Positions 443-35,359 of a DNA stretch of 43,803 nt are shown one piece after another. Origin of the DNA: an uncultured Candidatus Peribacteria bacterium (GTDB taxonomy: Bacteria; Patescibacteriota; Gracilibacteria; UBA4473). The translations under genes and the position numbers were made by a program. Position 1 is the stretch's first letter, and each line of letters starts with the position of its first letter. The stretch covers positions 1 to 43,803 of the forward strand of contig CAYVJW010000002.1 in NCBI GenBank assembly GCA_964451885.1, read 5' to 3'. Under the pieces are notes generated by a model. The model did no database searches, had not been told where the DNA came from, and saw nothing but the letters and a program-made list of their open reading frames with translations.

Positions 443-3400
443 TCAAACTTTTTTTGTAATTTTTAGAATTACCTCCTCCTTGTCAACTTCTATTTTATCC
501 CCTGAAACATGCTCGTCACGCTTTATTTCCAAAGCCAAAACCTCCTCTGAAATCATTTTTTCAAAATGCTCGAAAGCTGATTTTATAACTTCTGAATCTG
601 TAGAGTAGGCAACTTTAATCCGGTCAGAAACATCAAAGCCTTTTTCTTTTCGTGTTTCTTGAATTGTTCTGATGAGTTCGCGTGCGTAGCCTTCCATGCG
701 TAATTCTGCCGAAATTTCCGTATCGAGAAGCACGACTGTGTGTCGCGTCGCTTCGGCTTCAATACCTTCTCTACAACAAAAACCAAACTCGTATTCGTTA
801 GGGGCCAACGTTTCTCCGGAGATTTCAATTTGTCCGTTTTTAAGTTCCTGGAAATTCCCCCCCTTACCTTCGCGAATTAATTCCTGCACCTTCTTTCCCA
901 ATCGAGGTCCCACCTTTTTGGCATCTACTTTTACAGTCTTTTGGGCAATTCCTTTCAGATTTTTCAGGATTTCGACTTCTTTTACGTTCGCCTCTTCTTG
1001 GATAACTTCCATCTGAAGGCGAGACGGCGCCGTCTCGCCTTCAGGAGTTGATATGGCAAATCGTAGTTTTTGCAATGGCTGTCTCAATTTAATTTTCTTT
1101 CTCGCCCTTACTGCTGCCGCCAACCGTACAATTTCCCGCACAACAGCTACCTGTTGCTCAGCTTTTTCATCAATCCATTTTTCAACCGCAAAAGGAAACA
1201 CAGTTAAATGTACTGATTCGTCATTCGTAGACCCTGAGCTTGCCGAATGGGTCGAAAGATCTCGGAAGAGTTTTTCCGAAAAAAACGGACAAACGGGAGC
1301 CAGTATTTTTGACAGGGCAAGAAGAGCACAATGCAGAGTTTCATAAGCTGCATGTTTATCTTCCGAAAACTCACCTGGTTTTCCTTCCCAAAACCGCCTT
1401 CTCGATCGTCGCAAATACCAGTTATTCAAATTATCTACGAATTTTGGAATCCTCCGAAGGGCTGTCTCGATTTCGTACTCGTCAAAATGTTTTCGAAAAG
1501 TCTTTATCGTGGTTTGTAGCTCAGATAAAATCCATTTATCAAGGTCATTTTTTGGCTTTGGTGCCGCAAATACGACTTTATGGTCGCCGGTCTTCACTTT
1601 TGGGGAGCGAAGATAGTCTTCTGCTTTGGCTTCGTTCGGGTTTAATTCTAAAGCCTGAATCGGTCCTCCGTGAGAAATCGCCACAATGGTTTTTCCCCTA
1701 TGTTTTTCTTTCATATCAGTTAAAAAATCCTGCATCCGACCTTGCGTGCTTTCCAGACTTTCGGTAGTAAGGTTGGCCAGCCGCTCTGGCTTCGGAAGGA
1801 CCTCCTTTCCTTCCAAGTCGCCAAAGCCTATTTCCCTGATTCGCTCGTCAATTATTATTTCCCCTTTGAAATTCGTTTCTTTTTTGAGTATTGCAGACGT
1901 TTCTTTGGCTCGAATGAAAGGAGAAGTAATGAGTACGTCAAAATCAGGGAGGGTTTGGGCGGCTTCTTTTGCTTCTTCTTTCCCTTTTTTCGTCAAATGA
2001 TGGTCATTTGCCACTCTTCCAGAATAAATCCGAGCAACGTTATGATCGGCTTCTCCGTGGCGGACGAAAATAAACTTAGTCGGCTGCCACTGGTCAATGT
2101 TGGCATAAGTGGAAAAGAAATTATAGGCATTTTGGATGGGCAGTATTACGGACTTGAGAACGTCCTCAACTCCTTGTTCGGCAAAATTAAAGTTTTCCCC
2201 CTTCATTATTGAAGACCCCATCAAATAAAACCGCATCGCATCTGCTCCATATTTATCAAAAACCAAAGTCGGATCGGGATAATTTTTCTTGGATTTAGAC
2301 ATCTTCGTCCCGTCTTCAGCCATAATCGTTCCGGTACAGATGGCATTTTTAAAAGAAGGCTTGTTCATCAGCGCCGTGGACAAAACATGCAGCGTATAAA
2401 ACCAGCCTCGTGTCTGGGCAATGTATTCGGCGATAAAATCTCCAGGAAAAGTTGCTTCAAATCGTTCTTTGTTTTCAAAGGGGAAATGTTTCTGTGCGTA
2501 CGGCATGGCCCCGCTCTCAACCCAACAATCGAGGACCTCCGGAGTACGGATCATTATTCCTTTACATTTTTTACATGACCATGTCAATTCATCAACAAAA
2601 TGCTTATGCAAATCCTTCACTTTTTTTCCAGATAAATTTTCCAGTTCTGCAATCGATTCGACTACTTGCTGATGTTCGCATTTATCACATTTCCAGATTG
2701 GAATCGGAGATCCCCAAAAACGGTTTCTCGATATGTTCCAATCGGGAGCTGTTTCAATTCCCTTTCCAAAACGACCGTGTTTTAAGTGACGAGGAACCCA
2801 ATTAATTTCTTCATTATTTTTGATCATATCGTCTTTGATCTTGTGAACGGCCAAAAAGTAAGCCAATTGAGGCTTGTAAATTAATGGGGTGTCGCAGCGC
2901 CAACAGTGTGGATAGGAATGAGAATGTTGTTGCCGTTCAAAAAGATTTCCTTGTTCTTCCAAAAAGAGATTGATCTGTTTATTCGTATCCTGATGGATAA
3001 CCGACATTCCCACAAAATCTGCCACCACTTCCTCAAAAACTCCATGGTCATCAACTGTTTCCAGATCTATTATTGGCAGATTGTTTTCTTTGGCATAGTT
3101 AAAATCATCTTCCCCGAAAGGGGCCAGATGAACGATTCCTGTCCCGTCTACATCCGAAACAAAATCAGCTCCTACTACTCGAAAAAGGCCGTCTTTTCGC
3201 TTGTCTTCGAAGTAGGGGAAGAGTGGTTCATATTGAATGTCTACTAAATCTTTCCCCTTAATTTTTTCTATTATGTCTGCCTCTTCACCAAAAAATTTTT
3301 TCACTAAATTTTCCGTAACAATAAATTGAGCGTTTTTATGTTCTACTTTTACATAGTACAATTCCGGATTCACACAGAGCGCAAAATTAGAAGGCAGTGT

Positions 3401-4207
3401 CCATGGGGTTGTGGTCCAAGCAAGAATGTATGTATTTTCTTTATCTCTTATCTTAAATTTTACCGTTGCTGACTGGTCATGCCGAATCTTATACGAGTTA
3501 TCCATCGCGATCTCAAAAGTCGACAAAGGCGTGGCGCATCGTGAGCAATAAAGGGAAATACGCCGTCCCTCATAAATCAAATCTTTTTTATGTAATTCCG
3601 AAAACAGCCACATTACACTTTCCATATAATCCAAATCCATTGTCTTATAATCGTTTTCGAAATCCACCCATCGGCCGAGACGCTCAACCACCTTTTCCCA
3701 CTCCGCCACATACATATCGACCTTGCTTCGGCAGGCTTCGTTAAACTTTGCAATGCCGATTTTTTCTTCAATATCCTTCTTTGATTTCGTCTCAAACGCC
3801 TTTTCAACTATATTTTCAACAGGTAATCCGTGGCAATCCCATCCGAAACGCCGTTCAACCCGGTAGCCTTTCATGGTCCAATACCGGGGGACAACGTCTT
3901 TAATTGTCGAAGCCAGTAAATGCCCGTAGTGAGGGAGTCCCGTAGCAAACGGCGGCCCGTCGTAAAACACATACTCGTGTTTCGGATTCCGTGTTTCTAT
4001 AGAACGCTCAAAGATTTTTTCCTTTTTCCAGAATTTCAGAATTTCTTCTTCGTTTTGGGAGATGGATGCATTGGAATCGATGGGAGGAAAATGTTGCATG
4101 AAATAATTACTTGACTTAAGATGATTTACGAATAATTTGGACGAAAAGTGACCTGAAAGCCTTGAGCTTGAGCTTGAGCTTGAGCTTGAGTTGGCATTGT
4201 TGCTCAA
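443..4207 (-). CDS. ileS: isoleucyl-tRNA synthetase with an embedded histidine-phosphatase domain. The true start is probably the ATG at 4099.
   Basis: HIGH-type motif PHYGHLLAS, KMSKS, editing-domain WTTTPWTLPSN, and the DLDKWILSEL anticodon-domain helix. The N-terminal 36 codons, including poly-Ser from a hexamer repeat, have no IleRS counterpart. Confidence 0.95.
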   Translation of the reverse strand: MSNNANSSSSSSSSSRLSGHFSSKLFVNHLKSSNYFMQHFPPIDSNASISQNEEEILKFWKKEKIFERSIETRNPKHEYVFYDGPPFATGLPHYGHLLASTIKDVVPRYWTMKGYRVERRFGWDCHGLPVENIVEKAFETKSKKDIEEKIGIAKFNEACRSKVDMYVAEWEKVVERLGRWVDFENDYKTMDLDYMESVMWLFSELHKKDLIYEGRRISLYCSRCATPLSTFEIAMDNSYKIRHDQSATVKFKIRDKENTYILAWTTTPWTLPSNFALCVNPELYYVKVEHKNAQFIVTENLVKKFFGEEADIIEKIKGKDLVDIQYEPLFPYFEDKRKDGLFRVVGADFVSDVDGTGIVHLAPFGEDDFNYAKENNLPIIDLETVDDHGVFEEVVADFVGMSVIHQDTNKQINLFLEEQGNLFERQQHSHSYPHCWRCDTPLIYKPQLAYFLAVHKIKDDMIKNNEEINWVPRHLKHGRFGKGIETAPDWNISRNRFWGSPIPIWKCDKCEHQQVVESIAELENLSGKKVKDLHKHFVDELTWSCKKCKGIMIRTPEVLDCWVESGAMPYAQKHFPFENKERFEATFPGDFIAEYIAQTRGWFYTLHVLSTALMNKPSFKNAICTGTIMAEDGTKMSKSKKNYPDPTLVFDKYGADAMRFYLMGSSIMKGENFNFAEQGVEDVLKSVILPIQNAYNFFSTYANIDQWQPTKFIFVRHGEADHNVARIYSGRVANDHHLTKKGKEEAKEAAQTLPDFDVLITSPFIRAKETSAILKKETNFKGEIIIDERIREIGFGDLEGKEVLPKPERLANLTTESLESTQGRMQDFLTDMKEKHRGKTIVAISHGGPIQALELNPNEAKAEDYLRSPKVKTGDHKVVFAAPKPKNDLDKWILSELQTTIKTFRKHFDEYEIETALRRIPKFVDNLNNWYLRRSRRRFWEGKPGEFSEDKHAAYETLHCALLALSKILAPVCPFFSEKLFRDLSTHSASSGSTNDESVHLTVFPFAVEKWIDEKAEQQVAVVREIVRLAAAVRARKKIKLRQPLQKLRFAISTPEGETAPSRLQMEVIQEEANVKEVEILKNLKGIAQKTVKVDAKKVGPRLGKKVQELIREGKGGNFQELKNGQIEISGETLAPNEYEFGFCCREGIEAEATRHTVVLLDTEISAELRMEGYARELIRTIQETRKEKGFDVSDRIKVAYSTDSEVIKSAFEHFEKMISEEVLALEIKRDEHVSGDKIEVDKEEVILKITKKV
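1550..2077 (-). other. histidine phosphatase (PGAM/His_Phos_1-like) domain inserted in-frame within ileS
   Basis: FIFVRHGEADHN (RHG-x4-N; RHG codons at 2054-2062), ITSPFIRAKETS, ERIREIGFGDLEG, AISHGGPI (His codon at 1670-1672). Confidence 0.8.
4161..4190. repeat. perfect hexanucleotide tandem repeat (cttgag)x5
   Basis: Read directly. It encodes the Ser run if the ileS ORF starts at 4207. It lies in the leader if translation starts at 4099. Confidence 0.9.
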
Positions 4208-8085: not shown

Positions 8086-8157
8086 AAAATAATTGATAAT
8101 TGTTAATTGTCATTGTACCCTGAGCTTGCCGAATGGGATAATTGATAATTGATTCTG
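8086..8157 (+). repeat. 72-nt leader module: heptamer words (ataattg x2, ttaattg, tcattgt), a G+C-rich core at 8117-8137, then ataattg x2. It is homologous to 29196-29267.
   Basis: Aligned by eye with the ruvB leader. Shared blocks are ATTGATAATTG, AATTG, ACC, TGAGCTT, CGAA.GG and ATAATTGATT.TGATG. Confidence 0.7.
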
Positions 8158-10206: not shown

Positions 10207-10241
10207 TTCTAAGTTCTAAGCTCTAAGTTCTAAGCTCTAAT
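10207..10241 (+). repeat. tandem heptamer array (ttctaag, ttctaag, ctctaag, ttctaag, ctctaat) in the rplT leader
   Basis: Read directly. 10182-10192 (agaacttagaa) is the perfect complement of 10207-10217. Confidence 0.85.
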
Positions 10242-16639: not shown

Positions 16640-17380
16640 TTATAAGTCCATTGACTTATCTTTCGAAGTATTATCCAGGTCAATCCCCACTCCTCCCTCA
16701 TCATCCAACACCTTCTCCACGTCTATATCCACCCCTTCTTCTACCGGAATAGTAGCTAATACGGGAGGGAGTGGGGTTTTATCTTCCTGAGGATTATCAC
16801 GGTCGGGAATGCCGTGATCTTTTACATGTGTAAGAACCAGTTGTGATAAGAGATTTTTAAGGGCAGATTCCTCGGTGAAATTCTTATTATTAATGGCTTT
16901 TTCTTTGTAATTTTCAATAATTCTTGAGACTCTGTGAGGGCGGTTTATGTTTAGCACTTCTGTAAGGACTCCTCCAATCTGCATAAATATTATTTTTCCG
17001 TAATTTCCTAAAAAAGATTTAAACCCTATTTTTTCGACCCCCACCTGATCCAGATCAAAAAAATTAATACGGTTTCCCCTTTTACAAAAAAACGTTGGCC
17101 AGTCCACAATCACCAGACCTATGTTTGTCATTACGATACCGTTCATATACCAGTAGAAAAACACTGAAAGCATGCGGAATAAGGCAAAAAGCGCTACGCC
17201 TGCCCAAACAAGAATAAGTCTCTGGGGAAAGAAAAACCAAATCGTCCCCGCCAATGCCCCCCACCCCAAAAGGTGAGTCAACATCTTTCCGGAAGTAAAC
17301 ATAAACGGACACCGAAAGACATGGAGTACAATCTCTTCGTCTTCCAGAAAACTTCCGAATCCCCAATTTTTCCAATGCAT
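16640..17380 (-). CDS. membrane protein with a bacterial PH-like (YdbS/bPH_2-like) region and an acidic C-terminal tail. The ATG at 17380 is preferred over the TTG at 17389.
   Basis: Two TM helices are followed by GIVMTNIGLVIVDW...NINRPHRVSRII. The family assignment is from memory only. Confidence 0.55.
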   Translation of the reverse strand: MHWKNWGFGSFLEDEEIVLHVFRCPFMFTSGKMLTHLLGWGALAGTIWFFFPQRLILVWAGVALFALFRMLSVFFYWYMNGIVMTNIGLVIVDWPTFFCKRGNRINFFDLDQVGVEKIGFKSFLGNYGKIIFMQIGGVLTEVLNINRPHRVSRIIENYKEKAINNKNFTEESALKNLLSQLVLTHVKDHGIPDRDNPQEDKTPLPPVLATIPVEEGVDIDVEKVLDDEGGVGIDLDNTSKDKSMDL

Positions 17381-17386
17381 CGGGTC

Positions 17387-17421
17387 CAATTATCAATTAT
17401 CAATTAATAATTATCAATTTT
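17387..17421. repeat. tandem heptamer array (caattat, caattat, caattaa, taattat, caatttt) abutting the start of ORF 16640-17380
   Basis: Read directly. Its reverse complement, ataattg, is the same word used in the metK leader. Confidence 0.85.
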
Positions 17422-17441: not shown

Positions 17442-17581
17442 CCCCCGGCAGAGTCTCCGATGAGGGACTCTGCCGCGGCGAAGCCGAATTATCAACCTTC
17501 CAGGATTATCAACAAAAAGCGGACTTGCTGTAATTTCGCTTCGCGAACGTCGAAGTCCCTAGTCGGAGACTTCGCCGGGGG
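17442..17581. repeat. REPIN-like 140-nt G+C-rich nested palindrome with two inverted hairpin units
   Basis: Hairpin A at 17447-17474 has a 9-bp stem and loop tccgatgagg. Hairpin B at 17551-17574 has a 7-bp stem. A closing stem pairs cccccgg with ccggggg (17442-48 / 17575-81). A middle stem pairs gcgaagc with gcttcgc (17478-84 / 17538-44). Confidence 0.65.
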
Positions 17582-17638
17582 GATATTGCTAATAGAGTTC
17601 GAACTTCACAATCTGTGTTTAGATTTTTTTATCCTTTG

Positions 17639-18716: not shown

Positions 18717-18806
18717 TTAAACAAGAAACGGAAGTACCGTTGCCGCCACAAAACCCAAAATAGTAATAAAAGCCGCAATTTTAACGCCGATTTTCTTTTT
18801 ACTCAT
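18717..18806 (-). CDS. possible 29-aa hydrophobic peptide (MSKKKIGVKIAAFITILGFVAATVLPFLV)
   Basis: Hand-translated small ORF between grpE and mnmA. It has one predicted TM helix after a Lys-rich N-terminus. No homology evidence. Confidence 0.3.
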   Translation of the reverse strand: MSKKKIGVKIAAFITILGFVAATVLPFLV

Positions 18807-18829
18807 TATTATTAATCATTATTCATTAC

Positions 18830-19297
18830 TCATTCTGCGCTAGCAGATACCTTCGCCGGCGCAATAACAATTTCACCAAATTTCCATCCCGGCTCCAAAG
18901 TCCGAATGACCGCCCCCTTTCTTCCTTCCTCCGTAAGTAAAACCTCATGCAAACCCGAATCAATATTGTCCCCCTTTTTGGGAGCAATTTTCTGAAACCC
19001 TAATTTTTCCAGCTTCCCGAAAAACTTATCAATCACTTTTATGAGTTCTTTATCTGAAGAATGTTCTTTTCCCAATTGTAATTCAAAAAAATTTGGTAGA
19101 AGCTCTTTCAAAAAATAAGCAATTCCACTCGCGGTCCAATTCTTTTTATTCTCTGATTCTCTTCGTCTTAAATTCTCAAGATCGGCCAAGGCTCGAATCG
19201 CCTTATTTTTTTCTGCTGCTACAGATGCTTCCAGCTCTTTGATATGGGATTTTAGCTTGCCGGAGCAACATGTTTTTTCGTTTTTTTTATTACTCAT
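18830..19297 (-). CDS. grpE: nucleotide exchange factor GrpE
   Basis: Coiled-coil N-terminus with RALADLENLRRR. The C-terminal beta domain contains HEVLL...VIRTLEPGWKFGEIVIAPAKV. Confidence 0.85.
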   Translation of the reverse strand: MSNKKNEKTCCSGKLKSHIKELEASVAAEKNKAIRALADLENLRRRESENKKNWTASGIAYFLKELLPNFFELQLGKEHSSDKELIKVIDKFFGKLEKLGFQKIAPKKGDNIDSGLHEVLLTEEGRKGAVIRTLEPGWKFGEIVIAPAKVSASAE

Positions 19298-19462
19298 TAT
19301 TCATTACTAAGGGTGAGAGATAAAATAACATGTTCAAGTTCGCTCAGATTTGCATTATATAGATTTATAAAAAATTGAGGAATATTGTAATATTGTGAAA
19401 GTTTTTAGAAATTTAGATGATGTGAAGCTGTGATGAAATTGTTCAAGTTATTTTGTCTCGCT

Positions 19463-26793: not shown

Positions 26794-26799
26794 AGTTGA

Positions 26800-26820
26800 A
26801 AGTTTATAAAGTTTATAAAC
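26800..26820. repeat. nonamer words aaagtttat x2 (+aaa), a 21-nt stretch identical to 32575-32595
   Basis: Read directly. It lies in the DUF4012 gene leader but in the opposite orientation relative to that gene. Confidence 0.8.
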
Positions 26821-26881
26821 TTAATAAAGTTAATCCTTCAACTTTATGAACTTTATTTAATTTTTTTTATCCCTTAAAAAC

Positions 26882-32574: not shown

Positions 32575-32616
32575 AAAGTTTATAAAGTTTATAAAGTTCG
32601 TAAAGTTTATAAAGTA
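32575..32616 (+). repeat. tandem nonamer array (aaagtttat, aaagtttat, aaagttcgt, aaagtttat, aaagta) abutting the trpG/pabA ATG
   Basis: Read directly. It fills almost the whole 47-50 nt divergent argS-trpG spacer. Confidence 0.85.
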
Positions 32617-35281: not shown

Positions 35282-35359
35282 AAATGGCTGGATGGTTAAA
35301 TGGCTAAATGGTTATAATGATTTTATCCAACCCTAAGCCATTTAACCATCCAGCCATTT
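35282..35359. repeat. 23-bp perfect inverted repeat built from 8-nt words (aaatggct, ggatggtt, ...), between the recA stop and the leuD start
   Basis: aaatggctggatggttaaatggc (35282-35304) is the exact reverse complement of 35337-35359. The loop is 32 nt. Confidence 0.85.

Follow-up and report, generated by a model that had tools for sequence, protein, structure and literature searches.

A REPIN-like double hairpin between mnmA and the following gene in a Gracilibacteria-type CPR genome, probably one copy of a dispersed repeat family

The window (the whole 43.8-kb stretch of DNA that was analyzed) encodes housekeeping functions such as ribosomal proteins, rpoA, tuf, recA, ruvB, aminoacyl-tRNA synthetases, RNase J and a DUF4012 protein, and it uses the standard genetic code, since TGA serves as a stop codon. 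The subject of this report is a G+C-rich element with nested hairpins that lies in the spacer separating the mnmA stop codon from the start of a 246-aa ORF, both genes being encoded on the minus strand. The ORF has no Pfam match, and its named homologues belong to Candidatus Gracilibacteria. Two further sequences, a contig of JGI metagenome 3300009128 (L001) and an ENA scaffold (L150), carry the window sequence and are 100% identical to it over the spacer. An initial annotation, made from the letters of this DNA alone, had placed the element in an AT-rich spacer between mnmA and ORF 16640-17380, and our coordinates and gene calls agree with that location; likewise, every string that it quoted for the hairpins and stems was found in the DNA where it had placed it. 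The plus strand is taken as the canonical orientation, i.e., the short-loop hairpin comes first and a T-run lies 5', matching the Gracilibacteria copies described below, and in this orientation the window's element is antisense to both flanking genes. The features of the locus are as follows (L149 is a syntenic relative and JTS-AC281 a Gracilibacteria MAG).

16640-17380, minus strand: 246-aa ORF without Pfam match; its start lies 62 nt past one end of the element
17442-17581, plus strand: whole double-hairpin element, 140 nt; right boundary supported by the empty site of L149
17442-17448: 5' half of the closing stem, CCCCCGG, pairing with 17575-17581; the JTS-AC281 counterpart is CACCCG with CGGGTG
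17447-17474, plus strand: hairpin A (unit 1), GGCAGAGTC-TCCGATGAGG-GACTCTGCC; covariance model R1, 48.7 bits, E = 1.3e-10
17478-17491: 5' half of the inner stem, GCGAAGCCGAATTA, pairing with 17531-17544, 86% complementary
17492-17530: central loop or spacer, 44% GC, absent from copies in other genomes
17531-17544: 3' half of the inner stem, TAATTTCGCTTCGC, pairing with 17478-17491
17549-17576, minus strand: hairpin B (unit 2), an inverted copy of unit A; model R1, 46.6 bits on the minus strand
17575-17581: 3' half of the closing stem, CCGGGGG, pairing with 17442-17448
17583-17593: host flank ATATTGCTAAT to the right of the element, putative insertion-site flank; TTAGCAATAT (gene strand) in the element-free 55-nt spacer of L149
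17639-18709, minus strand: mnmA; its stop codon lies 57 nt from the element

Hairpin A has a perfect 9-bp stem (GGCAGAGTC with GACTCTGCC), and its inner part is predicted to consist of GTC, a bulged T and CC, followed by a GATGA pentaloop and GG-GAC. Hairpin B, when read as its reverse complement (GGCGAAGTC-TCCGACTAGG-GACTTCGAC), fits the same unit model; its stem (GTCGAAGTC with GACTTCGCC) is interrupted by a single T.C mismatch, in the second base pair of the foot. The two hairpins are separated by ~70 nt of partly self-paired spacer, in which the inner stem GCGAAGC/GCTTCGC extends to 14 nt. The arms of the element as a whole (17442-17469 and 17554-17581) are 28 nt long and 86% complementary, and a repeat search extended the inverted repeat to ~50 nt and recovered both local hairpins besides the arms. 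G+C content is 57% over the element and 59-66% in its arms vs. 20% and 30% in the flanking spacer. RNA folding gave -75.3 kcal/mol for the plus strand (z -7.3) and -77.1 kcal/mol for the minus strand, i.e., the gene strand (z -7.9), with 0 of 200 dinucleotide shuffles folding as well in either case. The earlier description of a G+C-rich nested palindrome in AT-rich surroundings is thus borne out by both base composition and folding (z about -7 to -8). When folded as DNA, the whole element had a z of -4.8 and hairpin A alone had z values of -4.5 and -6.0 on the two strands, while hairpin B alone was weaker (-1.5 and -3.5). For the single-stranded whole element, one long hairpin (-75 kcal/mol) was more stable than a four-way form containing both local hairpins (-65 kcal/mol).

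The two units differ in the stem at adjacent positions, with AG/CT in hairpin A and GA/TC in hairpin B. As the initial annotation had pointed out, this difference is compensated inside each hairpin, where both local pairs are kept, and costs pairing between the arms, where each of the two pairings has one mismatch and one wobble. A chance palindrome, or one of purely local origin without relatives, such as the product of a hairpin-templated duplication, was also considered. The element is indeed the only copy in the window, since searches of the 43.8 kb, with model R1 among others, detected no further copy of the unit. However, none of the 200 shuffles folded as well, and homologous doublets of the same plan occur in other genomes (see below), so that this origin has next to no likelihood.

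Several features of the surrounding DNA are also of note. Tandem heptamers (CAATTAT, TAATTGT, GATAATT, TTCTAAG, TTACTCA and others) occur in many intergenic spacers just upstream of gene starts, the array sites in the window being 17387-17419, 8090-8110, 8137-8153, 10207-10240, 18799-18834 and 19289-19308. In L149 (9945-10000) and L151 (9960-10000), the homologue of the 246-aa ORF is likewise preceded, at the corresponding position, by heptads of ATTGCTC, ATTGTTC and ATTGATA. Between the element and the downstream start codon, the heptamer repeats contain a sigma-70-like TTGATA-17-GATAAT (17417-17389, minus strand); sites of this type arise from the heptamer arrays themselves. Heptamer arrays have been reported in cyanobacteria and Beggiatoaceae, and those of the window resemble them (PMC4679880). 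The word TTGATAAT occurs at 12 sites in the window vs. 3.8 expected, a number reached by 0 of 100 shuffles, and several of these sites, on the sense strand, shortly precede gene starts. Two lie on the minus strand within the element, one in the central loop (17505-17512) and one straddling the boundary between inner stem and loop (17488-17495). Since both are within the spacer of the palindrome, its interior contains host-promoter-like words, which are missing from the copies in the Gracilibacteria MAGs. Elsewhere in the window, a perfect 24-nt inverted repeat with a 30-nt loop (35282-35305 / 35336-35359), made of AAATGGCT/AAATGGTT 8-mer tandem repeats, lies between an ORF with an aconitase C domain (leuD-like) and recA, and a 9-mer tandem array, AAAGTTTAT, is found in two separate intergenic spacers (26799-26831, 3.7 copies; 32575-32615, 4.6 copies). 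In addition, an isoleucyl-tRNA-synthetase-like ORF of 1254 aa (443-4207, minus strand) has a His_Phos_1 domain inserted at residues 713-853, which is an unusual fusion.

Comparison with relatives indicated that the element was inserted at this site. The gene order grpE-mnmA-ORF-pepA is kept in L149, L151/L152 and L153/L154, where the spacer between mnmA and the ORF is 55, 89 and 92 nt, respectively, and has no match to R1. With the element, as in the window, L001 and L150 (one sequence), the spacer is 258 nt, and an insertion is therefore indicated. On the gene strand, L149 reads ...GATTAGCAATAT-TTTTT-ATTGCTC and further heptads up to the ATG, and the window reads ...ATTAGCAATAT, the element, AAAAACAGTGAATAATAAAAAAA, and then ATTGATA and further heptads up to the ATG. 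Since the relatives are distant (49-54% identity in a neighboring protein, 54% for the closest), the ends of the insertion are approximate. No target-site duplication or flanking direct repeat was detected at the window copy or at the five full copies of JTS-AC281, and comparison of the flanks of all JTS-AC281 copies likewise gave none. The only common feature of the left flanks is a T-run (TTCC, TTTCC or TTGGC), with no fixed word.

Copies of the unit were sought in other genomes. A metagenome scan with a 16-base core pattern was permissive, and the matches listed were mostly due to chance; among them, the core was found within longer G+C-rich hairpins with different stems on contigs L102, L104 and L110, in AT-rich intergenic DNA with heptamer repeats, like that of the window. 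L104 carries a doublet, its second, inverted hairpin being 34 nt downstream, and the hairpins of L102/L144 and L110 are singlets. L144, a 2.3-kb contig with the same sequence as L102 and one copy, is binned as Gammaproteobacteria, although this binning is doubtful. In a tighter scan of 185,579 species genomes, the exact core was present in only three, with seven, one and one copies, and the remaining matches were single sites in coding DNA or ordinary terminators. The seven core loci of Candidatus Gracilibacteria MAG JTS-AC281 comprise five full doublets and two half copies (left half only). Over 100 nt, the five full copies are 91-97% identical, while their flanks are 16-40% identical. Their consensus, TTCCACCCGTCGGAGTCTCCGACCAGGGACTCCGACG-spacer-GGCGGAGTCC...GTCGGAGAGACTCCGCCGGGTGCGA, follows the plan of the window element, i.e., closing stem, hairpin 1, spacer and inverted hairpin 2. 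Another Candidatus Gracilibacteria MAG, JTS-AC289 with accession JBGSOV01, contains one doublet. Uniqueness of the unit to this locus, which the initial annotation had named as evidence against its reading, is therefore contradicted by the seven copies in one MAG and by those in JTS-AC289 and the metagenome contigs. Outside the 18-22 nt that served as bait, features common to the copies are the closing stem (CCCCCGG / CACCCG), the GGC/GTC feet of the hairpin, the 5' T-run and a second hairpin ending in ...GTCGGAGA-GAC, and the size of the element in this family is 95-140 nt.

Six of the seven JTS-AC281 copies are on one contig, and five copies lie within 3.7 kb, so local duplication or gene conversion could contribute to their number. 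The six copies on this contig (JBGSON010000032) share one orientation, and the adjacent genes point both ways. They extend from ~7195 of locus L129 to ~3711 of locus L130 (JBGSON010000032.1), apparently a region of ~4.5 kb if these two 8-kb loci adjoin. Among the copies lie a RelB-YafQ toxin-antitoxin fusion, an ORF resembling lipoproteins, a protein of AlbA_2/Schlafen type and a long ORF that was taken as RelA/SpoT-like by its sequence alone. The cluster looks like a variable or defense-type island, and some of its ORFs read into the element under code 25. An array of integron attC sites is characterized by RYYYAAC ... GTTRRRY core sites, one per co-oriented cassette. This candidate was rejected: the ends of the elements read CCACCCG...CGGGTG or CCCCCGG...CCGGGGG, without GTTRRRY R'/R'' boxes, and the genes between the JTS-AC281 copies occur in both orientations.

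Beyond the sites bearing the pattern, R1 detected no diverged copies in the window and ~1.1 Mb of fetched loci, and it had no matches in ~130 kb from relatives. In viral contigs, the core pattern gave only chance matches in coding sequences, and blastn of the element against phage and plasmid collections gave no match. The 18-nt hairpin core of the family, AGTCTCCGAnnAGGGACT, was also found within A-tract/T-tract terminators of unrelated Firmicutes (L136 7772-7813, Oscillibacter sp. CAG:241; L142 3490-3531, Neobacillus sp. DY30) and, among the matches listed, in such terminators at about 25 gut-metagenome loci. These are single loci and look like convergence on a stable hairpin, not homology.

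To assess conservation of the hairpins, ten units from five sources were aligned with the hairpin structure imposed. Results showed that 92.5% of cells were paired vs. 79.4% in column shuffles (0 of 500 as good), and that the proportion fell to 29-44% when the 3' partner was slid by 1-3 columns. Both sides had changed in six of the 12 pairs, and the stems differ between lineages yet are self-complementary. Substitutions that break the hairpins, a second observation named beforehand as unfavorable, are thus not what the copies display. The bulged T and the GANNA pentaloop are conserved in the predicted fold, although conservation of the 18-nt core is partly by construction, since it served as the search bait. 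In all four independent doublets (window, JTS-AC281, JTS-AC289 and L104), mismatches in the local stems were fewer than those across the arms. The argument that covariation favors the local hairpins, proposed for the window from its two units, therefore holds there and extends to the family. Compensated stems can, however, also result from templated (quasipalindrome) mutation without selection.

These data bear on a regulatory reading, in which a dimeric DNA-binding protein would bind the two units as paired operators, each a palindrome of 9-bp half-sites 10 bp apart, and would regulate the downstream ORF by DNA looping. The geometry is suitable, in that the units are 9-N10-9 palindromes ~102 bp, or about ten helical turns, apart from center to center, and the sigma-70-like sequence at 17417-17389 (minus strand) is just downstream. 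Nevertheless, in other genomes the units are located beside unrelated genes, the orthologous promoters of the relatives do without them, the non-palindromic loop is conserved and is inverted along with the stem, and the stem bases vary freely provided that they pair. We consider operators highly improbable.

A role at the transcript level was weighed as well, e.g., as a hairpin that stabilizes mRNA or serves its processing, as a terminator of unconventional type or as a small RNA, the element being kept by the host and merely duplicated. Such a role would be in keeping with the very stable fold of the gene strand (-77.1 kcal/mol, z -7.9), with a location between co-oriented genes, 57 nt after the mnmA stop codon, that resembles that of REP/BIME-type 3' stabilizers, and with one G.T wobble variant on the canonical strand (the L130 copy at 2748); covariation of the stems is expected equally of an RNA. 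However, three syntenic relatives do without the element, and the window copy, in its canonical orientation, is antisense to its neighbors. Mirror-copy hairpins, moreover, are needed by an element acting at the DNA level but not by an RNA. The JTS-AC281 copies hold one orientation beside genes of both orientations, and since this orientation is kept regardless of gene direction, a strand-specific DNA process fits better than a role in the transcript. Rfam 15 gave no family at the gathering threshold over the whole window, and the same result was obtained for the locus at E up to 10 and for the JTS-AC281 cluster; the best match, to a microRNA model with 25 bits vs. a threshold of 70, is due to chance. 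An intrinsic terminator was rejected because neither strand has a U-tract after the hairpin (minus strand, ...CCGGGGGAAAAAC; plus strand, ...CCGGGGGGATATTGC), and the sole terminator-like match lies inside mnmA. A hammerhead-like reading of CCGATGAGG was likewise rejected, as the loop is GATTA, GACCA, GAACA or GACTA in other copies. An origin as a functional RNA is therefore unlikely, though a role in the transcript is compatible with mobility and the two are not exclusive.

In the reading that we favor, and hold to be probable, the element belongs to a dispersed, non-autonomous, REPIN-like repeat family of Gracilibacteria-type CPR, one copy of which was inserted here between mnmA and the next gene. 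As judged by comparison of the copies, members of the family are built from a short stem that closes the element, a first hairpin whose core is GTC-T-CC/GANNA/GG-GAC, a spacer that varies and a second hairpin that repeats the first in inverted orientation. The same observations were considered in light of a classical MITE, whose arms of ~30-50 nt would be terminal inverted repeats bound in double-stranded form by a DDE transposase encoded elsewhere, with the internal palindromy incidental. The arms are inverted repeats as such an element would have (28 nt at 86% complementarity, ~50 nt when extended), and its size of 95-140 nt, its intergenic site, the near-identical JTS-AC281 copies and the syntenic presence and absence fit a MITE equally well. 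However, a target-site duplication is absent at the five full JTS-AC281 copies and at the window, and the differences between the arms are compensated within the arms, which recognition of double-stranded terminal repeats does not predict. Furthermore, hairpins stand alone in L110, in L102/L144 and in the two half copies of JTS-AC281, and neither the window nor the ORFs checked beside the copies yielded a DDE transposase with matching ends. A MITE of this type thus appears improbable.

If the family is mobile in the way that we favor, its recognition unit would be the individual hairpin, folded in single-stranded DNA, e.g., at a replication fork. Cutting and rejoining would then be carried out by an HUH/Y1 enzyme supplied in trans, by 'peel-and-paste' as with RAYTs and the TnpA of IS200/IS605, and such a mechanism would leave no target-site duplication. 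This single-strand reading fits better than a DDE MITE because there is no target-site duplication, because the units are self-complementary and also occur as singlets, because an extrahelical T and a pentaloop are present, and because a 5' T-run is common and the six JTS-AC281 copies have one orientation. As for the enzyme, the initial annotation had seen no transposase in the window, and a Pfam search of ~35 window ORFs bears this out. The ORFs beside the copies were searched with Pfam, and other long ORFs in the JTS-AC281 and JTS-AC289 loci were inspected by eye only; among the window ORFs and those checked beside copies, which sample a small part of the genomes, there was no RAYT, Y1_Tnp (PF01797) or IS200-type gene, and neither tnpA nor tnpB was seen. 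The sole transposase encountered is of the ISL3 family (L110, 311-1480); it interrupts a cyclodipeptide synthase gene ~240 nt from the singlet hairpin, to which it is probably unrelated.

REPINs consist of two inverted REPs with a spacer and are non-autonomous elements that use RAYTs; REPINs and RAYTs have been described in Pseudomonas and Enterobacteria (Bertels and Rainey, 2011, PMC3116915; PMC3337134). The present element resembles them in having two inverted, REP-like imperfect palindromes and a spacer, with units at 17447-17474 (plus strand) and 17549-17576 (minus strand) in the window and the same arrangement in JTS-AC281, JTS-AC289 and L104. Like REPINs, it is extragenic and can fold either into a single long hairpin or into two local hairpins, its doublets occur beside decaying singlets, the near-identical copies of JTS-AC281 have unrelated flanks without target-site duplication, and the hairpin structure is maintained across copies by compensated stems. 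The differences are also considerable. The host is a Gracilibacteria-type CPR bacterium, not a proteobacterium, and the family has 1-7 exact-core copies per genome, while REPIN populations number tens to hundreds. In place of a GTAG-type 5' tetranucleotide there is a T-run that leads into CC, or TGGC; a bulged T and a GANNA pentaloop are conserved in the unit, and the window's spacer is long (~70 nt) and partly self-paired. RAYTs are encoded by a single-copy Y1_Tnp (PF01797) gene that is typically flanked by REPs, but the search of the window and of the ORFs checked next to copies gave no such gene.

IS200/IS605 elements and their miniature derivatives, the PATEs, rely on a Y1 TnpA and single-strand 'peel and paste'; their imperfect hairpins are subterminal, carry an extrahelical base and are recognized in single-stranded DNA. 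The two hairpins of IS200/IS605, left and right, occupy one strand and are not inverted relative to each other, and insertion occurs 3' of a fixed target of 4-5 nt. The present family shares with IS200/IS605 hairpins with an extrahelical base, the lack of a target-site duplication and an orientation bias (6/6 on one JTS-AC281 contig). In layout and target it differs, since its hairpins are mirror images and its copies share only a loose 5' T-run. Of the match to REPINs or BIMEs with RAYTs, or to IS200/IS605, suggested by the initial annotation, the doublet architecture and the compensated hairpins are upheld, while the proteobacterial host is not, and neither RAYT nor IS200 genes were present in the ORFs checked. 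'REPIN-like' is thus a fair description of form and behavior, without implying membership of the REPIN/RAYT or IS200/IS605 systems. With DDE-type MITEs the element has terminal inverted repeats in common but no target-site duplication. Other palindromic, MITE-like repeats are ERIC/IRU of enterobacteria, Correia of Neisseria and RUP/BOX of pneumococci. Similarities to these include a length of 100-150 nt, an intergenic location, long hairpins when transcribed, presence or absence between relatives and, sometimes, promoter-like sequences; in contrast to the present element, their terminal inverted repeats are simple, without a further palindrome inside the arms, and are usually accompanied by TA or other duplications. 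Sequence similarity to known palindromic repeats was not detected by blastn against the phage and plasmid collections or in Rfam.

At the mnmA locus, the element is probably a neutral passenger. If transcription of mnmA reads through it, the RNA would have a hairpin of very high stability (~-77 kcal/mol) between the two genes, and this hairpin might affect mRNA stability or coupling. A bolder version of the REPIN-like reading, which we regard as possible but doubtful, is a CPR-specific REPIN-type system in which the mobilizer or keeper is not a RAYT but an unrecognized HUH or other single-strand-specific enzyme, or in which the repeats have been domesticated by a host protein. In the case of domestication, the host protein would read the conserved hairpin with its bulged T and GANNA loop, and the repeats would be cis-acting modules.

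CPR bacteria (Patescibacteria) have very small, streamlined genomes, in which mobile DNA is generally considered scarce. In the literature searched, we found no description of REP, REPIN or MITE families in CPR, Gracilibacteria or Peregrinibacteria, and the group is an unusual host for REP- or REPIN-like hairpin repeats. The hairpin-pair repeat is present in at least two Gracilibacteria MAGs, in the lineage of the window, which is placed in the Gracilibacteria type only by homologues of one neighboring protein, and in metagenome contigs, with stems that are lineage-specific but always compensated. For annotators, it is a caution that G+C-rich islands in AT-rich spacers may be neither terminators nor RNA genes. 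The repeat also provides a marker of strain-level rearrangements in uncultivated organisms and a handle for finding the enzyme that recognizes it. If the CPR-specific system were to prove true, it would be the first persistent partnership between a hairpin repeat and its host to be described in the reduced genomes of Patescibacteria.
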